Below are positions 21,899-47,408 of a DNA stretch of 47,408 bases, piece after piece. A program made the position numbers and the translations under genes. The stretch is from a virus. How positions within the stretch are numbered: position 1 is the stretch's first letter; each line of letters begins with the position of its first letter. The stretch lies in UHGV virus genome UHGV-1361589, one strand, 5' to 3'. Below the pieces are notes generated by a model. That model saw nothing but the letters and a program-made list of their open reading frames with translations. It did not search any database and was not told the origin of the DNA.

Positions 21899-21927
21899 TT
21901 GACGTAGATTGAGGGTGTCGCTATAGT
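21899..21927 (+). promoter_or_regulatory. strong sigma70-like promoter TTGACG-17-TATAGT with TAGATTGA element
   Basis: TTGACGTAGATTGA at 21899-21912 and TATAGT at 21922-21927. Drives the plus-strand ParB/mini-clamp cassette. Confidence 0.55.
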
Positions 21928-21966: not shown

Positions 21967-22269
21967 ATGAAAGAATTCAAAGGTACGCCGGGGCCGTGGC
22001 GTATGGACCGGAACAATGTACACACCGGACAAATAGCAACAATCCATCATTGCATAGGAAATGATTGGGTTGAAATCTGGTCTCCAGATTGGCCAGACAC
22101 CGAACAGAAGCAAGAAGCTAACGCACGGCTCATCGCTGCCGCTCCGGAACTGCTGGAGTCGATGACCGTAACACTTGATGAAATCGGGCATTGGTTATCA
22201 CAACAGAAACCAGACCTTAAAGAAAAGATAGTTTCCGCAATCGCCAAAGCACTCGGAGAATCCCAATGA
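21967..22269 (+). CDS. hypothetical protein
   Basis: 100 aa (MKEFKGTPGPWRMDRNNVHTGQIATIHHCIGNDW...), first gene of the cassette. Confidence 0.4.
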   Translation: MKEFKGTPGPWRMDRNNVHTGQIATIHHCIGNDWVEIWSPDWPDTEQKQEANARLIAAAPELLESMTVTLDEIGHWLSQQKPDLKEKIVSAIAKALGESQ

Positions 22270-22389: not shown

Positions 22390-23205
22390 ATGACATCTCT
22401 CGGAAAAATTTACTCAGACAAAGAAACTCGCGGCGGAATCGTAGTCAACAAAGGCTATCAGGTTCCTGTCGACCAGCTTTATCTTGAGCCAGGATACAAC
22501 ATCCGCGAAGCCGATGAGCAGCACGTTGAATACTTCGCGCAGTGCTGGGAATCAGGCCAGCCAATCCCGGCGTTAACTGTTATTCCTGATGCCGATGGAA
22601 AGTGCATCAAGATTCTTGATGGCCAGCATCGTTATCTTGGCGCACTGCGTGCCATTGAGCGCGGCGTGCCAATTGCGCGCATTGAGTGCAAAGACTTCAC
22701 CGGCGATGAGGCGGATAAAATCGCCTTCATGGTGTCTTCCAGTCAGGGAAAGCAGCTTGACCCGCTTGAGCGTGCAAAGGCTTATGTGCGCCTGAAAGGC
22801 TTCGGATGGACGAATGAAGAAATCGCCAAAAAGGTAGGCCGCTCAGTTTCTGATGTACAAATGCACCTGTCACTTGGTGACGTACCTGATGCCATCAAGC
22901 AGCGCATCAATGCAGGACAAATCAGCTATGCCAACGCCGTTGCAGTCGCACGTGAGCATGGCGATGATGCAGTTAACGTTATTGATGCTGCCGTTGAGGA
23001 AGCGAAAGCGCAGGGCAAGGATAAGGTGACGGCTAAAACGCTCAAGGCCAAAAAAGTTAAGCCGATTGACCGCCTGATTCAGTTGCTGAAAGAAGCAGAT
23101 CATATGGTTGTCGCTGAGGGTCATGTCGCACAGGAGACCGAGGAGTTTTTGCGTCTTCCTTCCGCTGAGTTGAGTGAAGTGCTGGCGATTCTGGAGAAGC
23201 TGTGA
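22390..23205 (+). CDS. ParB/Srx-superfamily protein with DGQHR motif and C-terminal HTH (DndB-like/ParB-like nuclease domain)
   Basis: 271 aa. ILDGQHRYLGALRA motif in the N-terminal ParB-like domain; HTH-like TNEEIAKKVGRSVSDVQMHL. Confidence 0.55.
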   Translation: MTSLGKIYSDKETRGGIVVNKGYQVPVDQLYLEPGYNIREADEQHVEYFAQCWESGQPIPALTVIPDADGKCIKILDGQHRYLGALRAIERGVPIARIECKDFTGDEADKIAFMVSSSQGKQLDPLERAKAYVRLKGFGWTNEEIAKKVGRSVSDVQMHLSLGDVPDAIKQRINAGQISYANAVAVAREHGDDAVNVIDAAVEEAKAQGKDKVTAKTLKAKKVKPIDRLIQLLKEADHMVVAEGHVAQETEEFLRLPSAELSEVLAILEKL

Positions 23206-23399
23206 TGATTACAATTGGCACTGTTGCAAAAAACATAAAAGAAGGCGATCACATCCTAATGCGAGACGGCGTGGCTCGCCAGGTGGAGAAAATTCACTAT
23301 CAGGAGGACATAATCGCATTTGAAATGAAGCGTTACGAAGAAAAAACAAGGCATTTCTTATTTTATGATGAATGCGCAAATGTGGTGGAGAGTTGGTAA
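23202..23399 (+). CDS. hypothetical protein
   Basis: 65 aa, overlapping start/stop codons with its neighbours. Confidence 0.35.
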   Translation: MMITIGTVAKNIKEGDHILMRDGVARQVEKIHYQEDIIAFEMKRYEEKTRHFLFYDECANVVESW

Positions 23400-23572
23400 T
23401 GAACCACGAACAGTTCATAGAGAAAAACCTGCGCGAAAAACTACCAGGTATCGACAACGCGGCCATAGAGGCCGCAATTACCCACTACAGGCGCAACCAG
23501 AGTGAAAAGAAGGGCAAGATTTTCGATGAATGCCTGAAGGTTGCAAAACAACACATGATAAAGGTGAAGTGA
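23399..23572 (+). CDS. hypothetical protein
   Basis: 57 aa from MNHEQFIEKNLREKLPGIDNAAIEAAITHYRRNQ.... Confidence 0.3.
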   Translation: MNHEQFIEKNLREKLPGIDNAAIEAAITHYRRNQSEKKGKIFDECLKVAKQHMIKVK

Positions 23573-24108
23573 TGAAATTAAAAATCAGCAAGTTAATTCT
23601 TGAAGGCGCGTTGATGTTCCAGGCCAAACAGGATGTTCGCTATTACCTGAATGGCATTTGCTTTATGCCTGATGGTCGCGTTGCCGCTACTGACAGTCAT
23701 CGCGCCATGATTGCCAGTAAGCATGAAAATAAATTGAAAGATAACGTTATCGTTTCTGTCAGCAAGTCGCCAACCAAGCGTTATGCGTATGCGCTCCTGG
23801 ACACTGAAACAAACATTGTCACCTACCATGACGAACATGAGGCGATGGTTGGTGCGGGAATTTGTTCTGAAATTGATGGCAATTACCCCGATATTGATCG
23901 CGTCATCCCGAAGCAGACCGCGCCAGCAGAACAGATTGGCTTCAATGCCAAATATCTTGCCGATGTTGAGAAACTGGCGAAGTTGTTTAACCCGAAATTT
24001 GAAGCGGTGCTATTTGAGTTGAATGGCAACACCAGCGCCGCCGTCGCAAACATCAGTGCGCCTACTGGCGAGACTGCAAAAGTTATCGTTATGCCAATGA
24101 GGATTTAG
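23572..24108 (+). CDS. truncated DnaN-like protein (beta sliding clamp domain II + abridged domain III; mini-clamp)
   Basis: 178 aa. [31 protein letters not shown] aligns with E. coli DnaN [48 protein letters not shown] aligns with DGRFPDYRRVLPKNP. The C-terminus [10 protein letters not shown] aligns with AAYVVMPMRL. DnaN domain I is absent. An AGGTGA RBS lies upstream. Confidence 0.6.
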   Translation: [178 protein letters not shown]

Positions 24109-24362
24109 TGATGAAAAAGAATGGCGTTTTTACTCAGAATGATGGCTCAAAAGTTGCCCGTCTTGGCGATGGTTACGTCGGCATTAAATTTGGCTCTTGC
24201 CATGGTGAAAAGTTAATAGCTATTGCGAATAGCACAAATCGAGGGGTGCCGGGAGATATAATTGATGAGGCTGATGAGGCTGAAATTTATATCACATTCA
24301 AAGACAACGCCTCAATTCAGCGGCTGATTGATGGCCTTGTTAGTCTTCGTGACCATAAGTGA
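24108..24362 (+). CDS. hypothetical protein
   Basis: 84 aa. ATG overlaps the stop of the DnaN-like gene (TGATG). Confidence 0.35.
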   Translation: MMKKNGVFTQNDGSKVARLGDGYVGIKFGSCHGEKLIAIANSTNRGVPGDIIDEADEAEIYITFKDNASIQRLIDGLVSLRDHK

Positions 24363-35827: not shown

Positions 35828-36759
35828 TGTGCATCCTGCCAAGCCTCACGCTGCTTATCGAGTCTTTCCTGCGTTTTTTCAAGTATCACAGGCTTGCCAT
35901 CCATTACCAATGCTGGAGTCTGCGCGCAGTGACAATTCCTGCGGTTTGCTCCTTCGCTGTAGAACTCATCAATCTCTTCCGGGGTGTAATACTTCCCATG
36001 ACGCGCGGCATGAGTGGCACGGGTCGTCTTCATTAGCGCCGACTGCCAGAGCATGATGGTTTCAATGCCAAGCGTCTCGCGTGCCTCAATCACTTCCTTG
36101 CGATTTGACTCACGCAGTACGCCAGTTATCTCGGTCTGCGCGATAGAACGTGCGTAACTATGAGATACGTCGGCGCGCTTGACGATATCGTCTTCAATGT
36201 CACGAGGGTTGGCACCGCGGGCAATGCCCTCCATTACAACCGATGCAACCTGCTGCCTGGTGTAGTCACTCAGCCCAGACCAGTCTGAGTACCCCTGAGT
36301 GTACGCCAGTTGCAGACGGTTAAGGTATGGCTCGCTATACAGGATGGCTGCCATAGGTCGCTGTTCAGCGTAGAGACTTGACAGGCTTGACAGTTCTGAG
36401 TTTGCTTTTTGAGTTCCGGCGGCCCATGCGTCGCCAATATGAATATTGGCCCACATCTGCCCATGGTCGAATGTATCGCCCTCAAGCAAAAACTGGTCAA
36501 GCAGGCGTTGCAGTTCATCCATGAACGACGCAGCACGCGAGGCGCTGAAATCATAATAATAATTACCACTTGATTCAGCATTCCTTTCGCTTACTGGAAT
36601 GCTGCGGAACAGCTCAAGAAGAGCCGCGCGAATGCGTTTGTATCTGGAGGCGATATCCTTATCCATCTTATTAAGCCGTGGCGCTGATCCTAACGGGTCA
36701 GTCAGGCTTTGCGACACCCTTGGCTGTGGCAGGCGGGCGTTAAGTCTGAGGATTTTCAT
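35812..36759 (-). CDS. head morphogenesis protein (Mu gpF / SPP1 gp7 family minor head protein)
   Basis: 315 aa. Conserved Mu-F-like core (...NRLQLAYTQGY..., HAARHGKYYTPEE, ANRRNCHCAQ), downstream of the portal. Confidence 0.6.
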   Translation of the reverse strand: MKILRLNARLPQPRVSQSLTDPLGSAPRLNKMDKDIASRYKRIRAALLELFRSIPVSERNAESSGNYYYDFSASRAASFMDELQRLLDQFLLEGDTFDHGQMWANIHIGDAWAAGTQKANSELSSLSSLYAEQRPMAAILYSEPYLNRLQLAYTQGYSDWSGLSDYTRQQVASVVMEGIARGANPRDIEDDIVKRADVSHSYARSIAQTEITGVLRESNRKEVIEARETLGIETIMLWQSALMKTTRATHAARHGKYYTPEEIDEFYSEGANRRNCHCAQTPALVMDGKPVILEKTQERLDKQREAWQDAHKKAT

Positions 36760-37663
36760 TTCACTCTTCCTCCATGCTTTAAAACCAATTCGGCCGCCTC
36801 ATGGGTTGATATATTGAAAAATTCTCTCGACCCATCAAATCCGGTTAACCCTGCATTTTTATGTTTTATTTCTTTGTGTATCATTGATTCAGCCTTTCTC
36901 GCGTCAGCCCATGATGGGAATGAGTACTCAGCAACCACAGCGACAGTTTTCCCTGCTGATTTTGATATGCTTTTCATTCTTCTTTCAGTGTTGTTGCTTA
37001 CACCTATCTTGCACGCCCCATCCATTTCAGCCACATATACACTTGCAGGTTTAAACCCATAAGCTGTGCATTTATTGCAACCGGACCCCCACAAGTGCGA
37101 GTTAGGTGTCTGATAGAAATCGCCATGGATATGACACGTAATACACACTTTTATTGAACTTTTCATGTAATTAACTTTCTCGTATGAGTATCTTCTTCCG
37201 TGAATTGCTCTTGCTTTTGTTATGAATGAGGCTTTATTATCGCTGAACTTTTCAGACAGGAGCTCAAGTTTGCATGATGGACAGCCATTTCCTGATAGAT
37301 GGTTTGCCGGTTGTTGTGAAAAGTCACCATGCTTTTGACATGTTACCAACACCTTCCTGTGATTTCCTGAGTATATGCACTTGTCATATGAGTATTTATC
37401 ACCATGAACCATTTTAGCTTTAGAGATAAATTCATCATTTGATGTCATTAACTTTCTTGCCCGAACATCTCTGGCGCAAAGTTCGCAGCCGTAACCAGCA
37501 AGATGGCATTCCGCTTTTTGAGTAAAATCGCCATGTTTTTTGCAGGTTATCGTTACTTGTTTTTTCGTTCCAGAAAACACAGACTTATCATAAATGTATT
37601 TATCGCCATGTTTTTGCCTGGCGCGAGAAATGAAGTCTTCCGTGGTGAGTCTTTTTGCCATGA
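36756..37663 (-). CDS. T5orf172/GIY-YIG-like domain endonuclease with three tandem N-terminal zinc-ribbon repeats (putative homing endonuclease)
   Basis: Three repeats of about 60 aa (..HGDKYxYDK..YxG...KV.ITC.KHGDF.Q.P..HL.G.GC..C). C-terminal VYVAEMDGACKIGVSNNTERRMKSI... is a T5orf172-type motif. The start is placed at MAKRL with a GAGG RBS. It is inserted between the portal and head morphogenesis genes. Confidence 0.5.
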
Positions 37664-37755
37664 TTAACCTCGTAGTAGGTTCGTAGACTGAGGATGCAGC
37701 AGGATGTCTACGTTCATCTTTTCGGGCGCCCCCTAGCTGCACATTTATTATATCA

Positions 37756-39150
37756 TCACTCCTCTTGTGATGGGTCATCCTCACTCATGCCGCCTGGTAA
37801 TTTTATTGGATCAAGGCCAAGGAATGAGCGAATTTCATCTGCCGTCAGGATTGGGTCCAAACCTGCATTCGCAGCGCTCTGCGCAGCTTGCGCCAGCTTG
37901 ACAATCAATTCTGCCTTGTCGTTCTGCGTAGGCTCCAGCAAGTCATTCCACTTGCAGTAATATCCGGCCTCTGGCGCTTTGTCGATGATGCCGAATTTAA
38001 TTAAACGCTCGACGAACACAGAAATAAGATAATCGAGCCACCCGTCACGACGCTGCATTGCCATCATGGCAAGTGACTGCTCATCATTTGCGGACGCAAG
38101 TACGCCGCTGCGACTACCGAGCAATGAGTTAAGAGGAATATTTACGGATGAAGCAAATTGGCTGGCCGCTACGTACATGAACGGTTCAGGGTCGTTCATG
38201 GTTACTGACAGCACATCCACATCATTGCCAAACCCAAACATCGCAGCGTCAATCCCGCTATTTATTCTTTCTATATCTTCATTAAGGATATCTGGCAGCT
38301 CCTCTACCGTAACGGCCATTTGCTGCGCAAGGGATTGCACAGATACATTATCTTTGTTGAAGGATATAGATAATTGACGTGATGAGTTTTTGAGAAGCCC
38401 TTCCGCTGAACTTCCGGTAATTTTGGCGCAGTCTATTAAAGCGTTAAATCCAGCTCGAAGCAGAGGAATGCCAGAGAATATGCTCCCATCGAAACTACCC
38501 TCTGCGAGAGTAATAATGCGGTCAGGGTGGATTTTAACCGATCGCTTTGGCTTACCATCGTTATCAAAATCATCAACGGCGCTTTCCTGGTACTCGAACA
38601 TCAAAGGCTGTCCGTAGTCCTCCTTTGACTCGTCATTTTGCCACTGAGAAACGCGCAACTGCTCCTCCCAGCATGGGATTAGCCTGACGATTGCCGCATC
38701 TTTAATTCTGCCTGTTTTGGTCACATTAACAGGATCACTCCATTGGCCGCCATCATTTATCTGAAGCAGCAAGCCTGAGTAGCGGTTGATTAGGTTGCGC
38801 TTATCAGCATCTTTGATAAATGGAGCTGACTTCTTGAGGATTTTGTTTACCGAAACTTCCCATTTGGATGTTGCCTCGTCATCAGCATTGTGCTCAAGAA
38901 CGGTGGGCATACCTTGCCACGACTTATTGAGCACAAGGTTAACCGCCGCTGTAGCTAACGGATATCGCTCGTAGGCAAAGCGGAAATCTGCTGCTGTAAT
39001 CTCCTGGCTGTAACCACACTCCGACCAAAGCCTGTCGTGCTTTTGGTCAAGGTTCTTCCCGCCAAACTCCCGACGCTGCCGCTCGATGAGCCTGTTATTG
39101 TTCGCCACTCGCTGCTGAATATAGGCGTTTACCGCCTCTAACTTTGACAT
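37756..39150 (-). CDS. portal protein
   Basis: 464 aa, acidic C-terminus, position between the packaging and head genes. Confidence 0.6.
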
Positions 39151-46101: not shown

Positions 46102-47408
46102 ATGATTACAGCACAGGAAATCTTCAACCAGGCAAGAGAAGCGCACACCTCTGCGGCGCGCGTAGCCATTCATCATGGCATGACACCAAGCCATAACATG
46201 TGGCCGGAAATTAAGGAAGGGCAGGAGAAGGATGTAACATACTCAGAGATAGAGCTTACCAGCGACAACAGGAAAGACCTGATAACGCGCTACTCAGTTG
46301 CAGCAGCGAGGGCTGTGCAATTCCCAGTTAGCACGTCATTCATGCACCTGCTTGGCTGCGTAGCCAGTGCCATGACGCGAAATTTTAGCGTTGAATACTA
46401 CGGTTCTGAATTGCCTGTTTCCTTGTATGTGGTGACGTCGCAGCCTCCATCAGCTGGCAAGACAGCTATCAACTCAATGCACATGAACCCGATAAAAATT
46501 GAGTATGATAACCTGTCAAAAAAGATGGAGAAGGAAATTGTAAAGATAAACATTCGCATTGAAGATCTGATGAAGGCTTACAAGGAAGCGACGAATCAGA
46601 ACGCGAAGGCCATCATTGGAGATGACATTGCTAAAGAGAAGGAAAAGCTGGAAAATCTTTACACCATCACCTACCCGTTAACCGATGCAACACCAGAAGC
46701 GGTGCAGCACCAGGCAATTCATGAGGGTGGTTTTTTCAACCTGATAAGTGATGAGGCAAGCGTTTTAAATACCTGTCTTGGCCTTTCGTATGGCAAGGAT
46801 GGAGGAAAGTCTAACGCCGAAGTTATCCTTAAAGGCTGGGACGGCGGATTTGTTGGCTCAGCTCGCGTTGGTCGTGGTGTTTCATCTGGCTATGTGCTTG
46901 GTAACATAAGCGTCATTGCACAGGATGAAAGTATTGATGCCATTCTTTCTGCTGGCGACAGGGGTAATGGATTGTCTGAGCGATTCCTTATGCTTCGTGA
47001 GCAGTCGATGCTTGGTTATCGTGAGCACTGGGATGTTGAAAATGATTGCCCGGTAAGCAAACCAATGCCGCAAGAATTAAAAGCTGAATATGCCAGATTT
47101 GTGCATAACCTTGTGGCTTCTGAGAAGGTTGTTTTCTCTCTCGCTAAAGAATCTCAGCGCATGATTGGACTTTTGCGAAACCAGTGGGAAAAGAATTTTC
47201 TTCCCGGTGGCAAATGGGATCACGTTTTGCTTCGTGGCGCCATGGGTAAGGCTGATAAACAGATAATCAGGCTTTCGGCAATATTCCATGCCGCTGAAAA
47301 CTGGTGCGATGGAGGTCGTCGCTCAAAAATTATTGGTGAGGAGCATATAAGCCGCGCCATAAGCGTTTATGATGCACTAACAAAAACATTTACCGATGCC
47401 GTTGAGTC
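46102..47408 (+). CDS. P-loop NTPase (putative replication ATPase/helicase, DUF3987-like), 3'-truncated by the window edge
   Basis: Hand-translated open frame of 435 codons with no stop. Walker A SQPPSAGKTA and Walker B-like FFNLISDEAS. It is not in the ORF track, presumably because it lacks a stop codon. Confidence 0.45.
   Translation, partial: MITAQEIFNQAREAHTSAARVAIHHGMTPSHNMWPEIKEGQEKDVTYSEIELTSDNRKDLITRYSVAAARAVQFPVSTSFMHLLGCVASAMTRNFSVEYYGSELPVSLYVVTSQPPSAGKTAINSMHMNPIKIEYDNLSKKMEKEIVKINIRIEDLMKAYKEATNQNAKAIIGDDIAKEKEKLENLYTITYPLTDATPEAVQHQAIHEGGFFNLISDEASVLNTCLGLSYGKDGGKSNAEVILKGWDGGFVGSARVGRGVSSGYVLGNISVIAQDESIDAILSAGDRGNGLSERFLMLREQSMLGYREHWDVENDCPVSKPMPQELKAEYARFVHNLVASEKVVFSLAKESQRMIGLLRNQWEKNFLPGGKWDHVLLRGAMGKADKQIIRLSAIFHAAENWCDGGRRSKIIGEEHISRAISVYDALTKTFTDAVE

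Follow-up and report, generated by a model that had tools for sequence, protein, structure and literature searches.

The analysed window (the whole stretch of 47,408 nucleotides) carries a gene whose 178-residue product we identify, from its sequence and predicted fold, as a phage-encoded derivative of the beta clamp, i.e., a stand-alone module of about 20 kDa that comes from the proteobacterial beta sliding clamp (DnaN). As read from the segments that it lacks, this mini-clamp cannot form the canonical ring. It is probably a pocket-bearing module for clamp-binding motifs, those of host proteins in particular, and we propose that it docks such proteins; of the possible uses, an adaptor for the host Pol III or clamp loader is the one that we favour. 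Our confidence in this reading as a whole is about even.

Organization of the mini-clamp gene cluster

The window is a Klebsiella siphovirus genome, complete and circularly permuted, in which the ORF of a DUF3987 helicase spans both window ends. Its genome relatives are vB_Kpn_ZC2, Tbat1_6 and pIS4-A, with 93-94% nucleotide identity over 20-28 kb. The ORF called in the first-pass annotation, which was made from the letters alone, was recovered with the same ends and the same 178-aa product. The gene and its surroundings comprise the following features.

21899..21927, + strand: sigma-70-like promoter match TTGACG-17-TATAGT (10/12), preceding the mini-clamp gene cluster; consensus match only
21967..22269, + strand: first ORF of the cluster, 100 aa, phrog_1273, function unknown
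22390..23205, + strand: ParB/KorB-like DNA-binding protein, 271 aa (phrog_1033, E=9e-87; Pfam HTH_ParB and KorB)
23399..23572, + strand: small ORF directly upstream of the mini-clamp, 57 aa from an internal ATG, phrog_4439, function unknown
23561..23566, + strand: Shine-Dalgarno AAGGTG, 5 nt 5' of the mini-clamp ATG, read from the sequence
23572..24108, + strand: mini beta-clamp CDS, 178 aa, from ATG 23572 to stop TAG 24106-24108; corresponds to DnaN domain II and the second half of domain III
24108..24362, + strand: small ORF, 84 aa, no family match; its start overlaps the mini-clamp stop codon

The stop codon of the phrog_4439 ORF (TGA, 23570-23572) overlaps the start codon of the mini-clamp as TGATG, which indicates translational coupling to the upstream ORF. 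Because of this overlap and the Shine-Dalgarno sequence, the 178-aa start is preferred over an in-frame ATG at 23530 that would give 192 aa. Together with the overlap at the downstream start, the arrangement places the mini-clamp in a translationally coupled + strand cluster, in the order phrog_1273 ORF, ParB/KorB-like gene, two small ORFs, mini-clamp and two further ORFs. Parts of this order are conserved: the phrog_1273 ORF is also found upstream of the ParB-like gene in relatives, and the phrog_4439 ORF (cluster 21 in the neighbourhood comparison described below) was found at 18 loci. Sigma-70-like sites are no more numerous in the region than expected from shuffled sequence, so that the match at 21899-21927 is weak evidence for a promoter.

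The cluster is flanked by structural genes of opposite orientation; the mini-clamp of this phage thus lies amid structural genes, apart from the replication genes. The replication and recombination genes of the genome comprise a primase, the DUF3987 helicase, an SF2 helicase, an exonuclease, a Sak4-like protein and an SSB. Among the larger ORFs, none was recognised as a DNA polymerase, in agreement with the initial description of a phage that encodes a primase and helicases without a polymerase.

Homology to DnaN and predicted fold

A phmmer search of the PDB retrieved enterobacterial beta clamps (E=9.6e-12 to 5e-11), with residues 7-160 of the query aligned to DnaN 136-295 and residues 120-178 also aligned to DnaN 315-366. 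Matches to curated families stay below the cut-offs: TIGR00663 (dnaN) was matched at E=1.7e-11 with 43.7 bits, against a curated cut-off of 137.65, and PF02767 (DNA_pol3_beta_2, 20.5 bits) and PF02768 (DNA_pol3_beta_3, 16.4 bits) both fall short of the gathering score of 27. These two DnaN domains are the sole Pfam domains of the mini-clamp, and no match to domain I was obtained in Pfam. A family profile built from 86 aligned and diverse relatives, whose identity to the window protein is 26-49%, gave a far stronger result. Aligned with E. coli DnaN by hhalign, it spans DnaN 137-366 with a probability of 99.4% (E=3.9e-21), and against PDB clamps it reaches E=1e-24. The alignment from the start of domain II to the C-terminus, which had been put forward at first sight, is therefore not a product of chance. 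The three motifs on which it was based are also present, i.e., a segment ending in ATDSHR (residues 19-44), the segment at residues 102-114 and the terminal VIVMPMRI (171-178).

We then examined the fold. An AlphaFold2 monomer model, computed with the 86-relative alignment, has a pLDDT of 96.8 and a pTM of 0.91 and shows the clamp fold, as the first-pass annotation had anticipated. The top PDB matches, by sequence as well as by fold, are all sliding clamps; the PDB holds no solved structure of a short member of the family.

Segments kept and lost relative to the bacterial clamp

The profile alignment divides the protein into two parts. Residues 8-116 correspond to DnaN 137-252 (domain II and the connector), and residues 118-178 correspond to DnaN 313-366, i.e., the second beta-alpha-beta-beta-beta motif of domain III. 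Absent from the mini-clamp are domain I and, by hhalign, DnaN ~253-312, which is the first beta-alpha-beta-beta-beta motif of domain III. The original proposal that domain I and about half of domain III are missing is thereby refined, since a domain II element is lost as well: residues 64-72 form no helix in the model (DSSP), and the second domain II helix of DnaN (~197-207) is a loop here. Most relatives have a conserved G..P loop in place of this helix, and a few have helix-like sequence. At 178 aa and without domain I, the mini-clamp is not a three-domain chain of ~366 aa.

By the established clamp fold, the retained unit is an eight-stranded sheet across the domain II/III boundary with two flanking helices and an extra four-stranded sheet, and carries the peptide cleft. 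In structural terms the D-edge of domain II is continuous, as one beta-sheet, with the strand that ends domain III, and the two helices, the connector and the 148-154 loop complete the unit, which is precisely the cleft for clamp-binding motifs (QLxLF-type peptides). The deleted DnaN ~253-312 includes I272/L273, and the substitutions I272A/L273A render beta monomeric (PMC11139829). Both partners of the head-to-tail dimer interface, the domain I edge and the I272/L273 segment of domain III, thus fall in deleted regions. With domain I, the first half of domain III and one channel-lining helix all lost, a canonical beta2 ring cannot close.

The clamp-binding pocket is retained

A review assigns R152, L155, T172, G174, H175, R176, L177, P242, R246, V247, V360 and M362 to pocket subsite I, and H175, N320, Y323, V344, M362, P363, M364 and R365 to subsite II (PMC11139829). 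The pocket elements were located in the mini-clamp as follows.

23632..23655, + strand: residues 21-28, DVRYYLNG (= DnaN 150-157); DNA and TLS-polymerase contact loop 2 (D150), pocket residues R152 and L155
23689..23706, + strand: residues 40-45, TDSHRA (= DnaN T172-L177; subsite I, H175); S42 in place of G174, A45 in place of L177
23875..23913, + strand: residues 102-114 (= DnaN 238-250); domain II/III connector with P242, R246 and V247
23935..23955, + strand: residues 122-128, IGFNAKY (= DnaN 317-323); subsite II residues N320 and Y323, start of the retained domain III helix
24085..24105, + strand: residues 172-178, IVMPMRI (= DnaN V360-L366); C-terminal strand, pocket wall (M362, P363, M364, R365)

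The retention of the pocket, suggested by the first reading, holds at the level of single residues: 14 of the 18 pocket residues are identical to those of E. coli DnaN, V360 is replaced by I, and the remaining differences are G174S, L177A and V344T. Pocket columns are also the best conserved of the family. Among the 86 relatives the mean frequency of the top residue is 0.73 in pocket columns and 0.38 elsewhere (Mann-Whitney p=4e-7), a contrast that is partly one of ascertainment, since the pocket is also best conserved in true DnaN and the homologues were gathered by similarity. Ten of the 13 most conserved columns belong to the pocket (P242, R152, G174, M362, P363, H175, Y323, L155, T172 and R365). 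In the numbering of the mini-clamp, D21, R23, Y25 and L26 are each at least 90% conserved, P106 is 99% conserved, and M174 and P175 are each 97% conserved. The positions of D150 (94%) and P363 (97%) deserve mention, as both residues are needed for E. coli viability, and the D150 loop contacts template DNA as well as Pols II, IV and V (PMC4045847). The rim positions R176, L177, V360 and M364 vary within the family, and the window protein has S at the near-invariant G174 position; ligand specificity may therefore differ from that of host beta.

Family distribution and annotation

The protein matches PHROG 3007 over its full length (E=8.2e-59; residues 1-178 on profile positions 1-186 of 190). 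From the members of this family the window protein is not materially different, except for the G-to-S change at the G174 equivalent. By tblastn, 280 phage records carry the gene, with Salmonella, Escherichia, Vibrio, Klebsiella and others as hosts; the closest is Klebsiella phage vB_Kpn_ZC2, with 96% identity. In these records the gene is annotated as RusA-like resolvase, as DNA polymerase III beta subunit or clamp, or as hypothetical. Named members, i.e., Burkholderia phage AH2 gp20 (209 aa) and the proteins of Shigella phage EP23, Salmonella phage LPST10 and Klebsiella phage IME207, are all entered as 'DNA polymerase III beta subunit'. The architecture had been thought undescribed, and this part of the first-pass annotation does not stand: homology to DnaN is already known through GenBank product names and through genome announcements that name such homologues (PMC5084854, PMC5578832, PMC3483164). 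The literature searched held no functional study of the family and no paper on its truncated architecture, on the selective retention of the cleft or on the function of its members.

To describe the family beyond phage records, an exhaustive HMMER scan was run on 1.84 billion cluster representatives from metagenomes. At least 145 clusters (50% identity) were found at E<=1e-10, and 129 of the 150 best clusters have lengths of 165-215 aa (median 185). The long proteins P0195 and P0230 (9-12 matched stretches) had the appearance of multi-copy fusions and were rejected as WD40-repeat false positives (CFSPDG...SGS). Given these false positives, the 1857 clusters at E<=1e-3 are an inflated count, and we rely on the 145 at E<=1e-10. 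BFVD likewise holds many viral models that resemble the mini-clamp in size and fold. A family that is large, length-conserved and phage-borne indicates a selected stand-alone form and not a broken gene or a one-off truncation. Origin from plasmids was considered and rejected: there are only 22 plasmid records, about half of them true dnaN, and the two that were inspected are prophage-like insertions. A profile search of genome contigs listed matches to true dnaN of Betaproteobacteria, with no useful prophage loci among them.

PHROG 3007 itself is labelled RusA-like Holliday junction resolvase, and the label is repeated in many RefSeq phage records, which is what speaks for such an activity. 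The mini-clamp has no RusA match in Pfam at E<=10 and has a clamp fold, and the label is thus unsupported; as far as sequence and fold tell, the resolvase is refuted. A decayed remnant is hard to reconcile with an intact, length-conserved and widespread family and with a gene that is translationally coupled in an operon. We regard remnant and resolvase as extremely unlikely.

Genomic context across relatives

Neighbourhoods were compared at 85 loci, i.e., 80 IMG/VR loci (searched with a 33-sequence subset of the alignment), four phage records and the window. A ParB/KorB-like gene lies upstream of the mini-clamp in 41 of the 85, which comprise this lineage and Jersey-like Salmonella and E. coli phages, and the space between the two genes is occupied by variable small ORFs or by insertions of homing-endonuclease size. 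In two of these 41 loci the order is ParB-like gene, mini-clamp and SF2 helicase, the helicase being a distant homologue of that of the window (E=2e-31); in 7 loci the mini-clamp has, no more than five genes away, an SF2 helicase of the type found in the window.

Another 31 loci are lambdoid prophages (44-49% identity). Their genes run in the order of a cI-like repressor, cro, a cII-like gene, the mini-clamp, an O-like initiator and a DnaB-like helicase, and in 21 of the 31 the initiator follows the mini-clamp immediately. None of the 31 has a ParB-like gene, which rules out a universal partnership with ParB. In other phages the mini-clamp is found within replication or recombination modules, where the neighbours are a VRR nuclease and a helicase (LIET2), a primase-polymerase (Pseudoalteromonas C7) or an SSB and Dam (Vibrio R20L). 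No universal phage neighbour was present among the 85 loci compared, which suggests that the ligand comes from the host. Restriction of the family to phages that lack a polymerase was also ruled out, since Dhillonvirus 'rolling' and Burkholderia phage AH2 carry both genes; the lack of a polymerase described for this phage is accordingly not a rule of the family.

Clamp-binding motifs (Q-hydrophobic-x-hydrophobic-hydrophobic, pentamer and hexamer forms) were searched in all window ORFs, with scattered internal matches only and none convincing. In the replication proteins of phage 'rolling', including its polymerase, the matches were again scattered and internal; in neither phage did one lie at the terminus of a replication protein. 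A PADLOC search for defence or counter-defence functions returned 0 families at E<=1.

Comparison with known systems

Compared with bacterial DnaN (E. coli and Klebsiella; PDB 1MMI, 6AMQ), the mini-clamp is phage-borne and shorter (178 against 366 aa). Domain I, the second domain II helix and the first half of domain III, with the dimer interface, are missing from it; it scores below the Pfam and TIGRFAM curated cut-offs and does not allow a canonical ring. The nearest described thing is E. coli beta*, reportedly a UV-inducible product of ~26 kDa from an internal dnaN start that consists of domains II and III and is said to form a trimer able to act as a clamp. The mini-clamp resembles beta* in that the N-terminal part of beta is missing, the chain starts close to the beginning of domain II, and the pocket is preserved. 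Beta*, however, has a full domain III and hence both edges for a PCNA-like ring, whereas the mini-clamp is without half of domain III and one domain II helix and forms a separate gene family.

Full-length beta clamps of phages, such as Burkholderia phage KL1 gp28 (386 aa, encoded beside a DNA polymerase), are likewise phage-borne DnaN homologues, but they have three domains, presumably form rings and are usually paired with a phage polymerase. The herpesvirus processivity factors UL42, UL44, BMRF1 and PF-8 have no sequence relationship to the mini-clamp; they are eukaryotic-virus proteins with two full PCNA-like domains and established direct DNA binding. Use of the clamp's peptide pocket beyond replication, in late transcription, is known from phage Mu MuC and T4 gp33/gp55 (PMC12867686). 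Those proteins use an intact ring (host beta or gp45), whereas here the phage encodes the pocket module alone.

Proposed role and alternatives

With the strongest constraint on the cleft and the ring-closing parts gone, the most economical reading is that of a motif-binding pocket module that does not form a ring. The mini-clamp would be made from a sigma-70-type operon alongside the ParB/KorB-like protein and would act, whether monomeric or as a small oligomer, as a soluble receptor to which clamp-binding motifs dock. Its near-identity to the host pocket, together with the lack of a universal phage partner, points to host ligands; candidate partners are Pol III alpha/epsilon, clamp-loader delta, Hda, Pol II/IV/V, MutS/MutL and RecB. 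The analysis shows the homology, the fold, the segments kept and lost, the selective conservation of the pocket and the genomic context, whereas peptide binding, host targets and the adaptor role are inferred. As an adaptor, the mini-clamp would bring host Pol III and clamp-loader assemblies to forks established by the phage initiator, helicase and primase. The recurrent place of the gene at the head of replication modules favours such recruitment to phage forks, as does the missing polymerase of this phage. Several observations count against it. A strong competitor for Pol III motifs could be harmful to a phage that depends on Pol III, relatives occur in phages that encode a polymerase, and the gene is here apart from the replication genes. 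The proteins of its own phage and the 'rolling' polymerase also provide no convincing clamp-binding motif.

The conservation of the pocket, on which the adaptor is based, would also serve for a decoy or sponge that titrates hostile or competing clamp clients and recruits nothing to phage DNA; examples of such targets are RecBCD after Chi, MutS/MutL in anti-recombination, Hda and the translesion polymerases. This is a possibility to be taken into account, albeit an unlikely one. It is consistent with the functional clamp-binding motif of RecB (QVEMEF; PMC13254535), with the phage's own recombination module (exonuclease, Sak4-like annealase and SSB), a possible target of antagonism by mismatch repair or RecBCD, and again with the lack of a universal phage partner. 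A decoy would, however, also compete for the Pol III alpha/epsilon/delta motifs that the phage needs; placement by initiator and helicase genes in the lambdoid prophages fits a replication role better, and the PADLOC search revealed no defence-related family. The mini-clamp might instead poison the host clamp by capping or intercalating beta, so that ring closure or loading is blocked, for example if the free edge strand of its domain II paired with the opened edge of domain III in beta. A long edge strand (residues 92-101, = DnaN ~229-236) is indeed unpaired in the monomer model, and mutant beta protomers can heterodimerise in vivo (PMC4045847). Nevertheless, poisoning is very unlikely: domain I and the I272/L273 segment of the natural interface are absent, the edge strand lies outside the conserved columns, and the phage itself needs a working host clamp. 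With both halves of the interface deleted, heterodimerisation with host beta through the normal interface, one of the roles first suggested for the protein, is disfavoured as well.

A different class of readings keeps the mini-clamp on DNA. It could be a true sliding clamp of new stoichiometry, i.e., a ring or C-clamp that acts as processivity factor and would be built from four protomers of 1.5 domains each or from a dimer that pairs the two orphan domain III halves. We consider this improbable: the two elements that close the canonical ring have been deleted, and of the three channel helices to be expected one is absent. The model of the monomer is already complete by itself and very confident, and no fused multi-copy protein was found once the WD40 repeats had been recognised. 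In a broader form that we hold to be more doubtful still, the mini-clamp would be a subunit of a new DNA-tracking platform. This would be either a ring, tetrameric or of D2 type, in which 4 x 1.5 = 6 domain equivalents come together, or a dimeric C-clamp with its two orphan half-domains paired, or else a two-part device in which the ParB/KorB-like protein would supply the DNA clamp and the mini-clamp the docking pocket.

Significance

The cleft of the beta clamp is a hub that organises polymerases, the clamp loader, Hda, mismatch repair and RecBCD, and it is an antibiotic target. A large and conserved phage family in which the clamp has been reduced to little beyond this cleft suggests that phages manipulate the clamp-client network directly, a strategy not described in the literature searched. 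At the level of annotation, the analysis corrects the designation 'RusA-like resolvase' that has been propagated through RefSeq phage genomes. If the mini-clamp were part of a DNA-tracking platform, host Pol III or another motif-bearing enzyme would be put onto phage DNA without the host beta ring. As a decoy, it would offer a natural and genetically encoded means of inhibiting clamp-client interactions, as well as a soluble 20-kDa scaffold for the study and screening of pocket ligands. If it recruits Pol III, as we favour, it would explain how the host replicase is captured by phages that lack a polymerase and have non-DnaB helicases.

Annotation and extent of the mini-clamp family

The phage protein family that includes the mini-clamp, PHROG 3007, carries the label 'RusA-like Holliday junction resolvase'. 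This label is unsupported: the fold is that of a sliding clamp, and the protein shows no similarity to RusA. Many RefSeq phage annotations have inherited the label (e.g., NC_071151.1, 21341-21874), whereas the GenBank versions of these genomes read 'DNA polymerase III beta subunit'. Two matches in the representative-cluster protein library, P0195 (1004 aa) and P0230 (1146 aa), scored E~1e-13 against the mini-clamp and were rejected as relatives. Both are WD40-repeat proteins, and their score arises from 9-12 repeats of CFSPDG..(A/L)SGS, similar to [14 protein letters not shown]. Because such matches are repeat-driven false positives, the count of mini-clamp family members at low stringency is inflated.

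A serine in the clamp pocket

The position of the pocket residue G174 of E. coli DnaN is occupied in the mini-clamp by S42 (codon AGT, 23695-23697). Among the 120 closest homologue clusters, glycine is found at this position in all 112 that could be scored, and it is likewise present in 97% of the 86 diverse relatives (26-49% identical to the window protein). In the E. coli allele dnaN159, G174A is one of the two substitutions and has a mild effect on the cleft (PMC4045847). S42 may reflect natural variation, adaptation or an error in sequencing.

The ParB/KorB-like gene and the interval before the mini-clamp

Upstream of the mini-clamp lies the following gene:

22390-23205, +, ParB/KorB-like protein with HTH_ParB and KorB domains

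In partition ParB proteins the CTP-binding motif is of the GERR type; the N-terminal domain of the ParB/KorB-like protein has DGQHRY where this motif would stand. The gene is constantly paired with the mini-clamp in the window's lineage, and the phage is lytic. The interval between the two genes is short and is an insertion hot-spot in related phages, where it holds extra ORFs of 127-449 aa (clusters 65, 72 and 113), none of which the window has. Such insertions were seen at ten loci (L007, L008, L010, L014, L022, L032, L035, L036, L041 and L042) and probably represent homing endonucleases or mobile genes of another kind.

Helicases and endonuclease-like genes

Elsewhere in the genome, three features were noted:

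46102-47408 joined to 2-244, +, DUF3987 (D5/P4-type) helicase ORF, 518 aa, spanning the window ends and missed by the ORF listing
1590-2159, +, HNH endonuclease gene, with the primase gene on one side and the SF2 helicase gene on the other
36756-37784, -, protein with a T5orf172/MUG113 domain and a treble-clef zinc finger, overlapping the end of the portal gene

The HNH and T5orf172/MUG113-domain genes both look homing endonuclease-like. In vB_Kpn_ZC2, the SF2 helicase is annotated in two pieces as a 'similar to DNA helicase' feature. The ORF downstream of the mini-clamp at two lambdoid prophage loci (L071 and L072) is a DnaB-like helicase of 797 aa; at the remaining lambdoid loci the helicase has about 470 aa. 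Past its Walker A region, the 797-aa form carries a large insertion that, judged by eye, appears intein-like. Since the DUF3987 helicase ORF crosses the window ends, the window represents a whole, circularly permuted phage genome.
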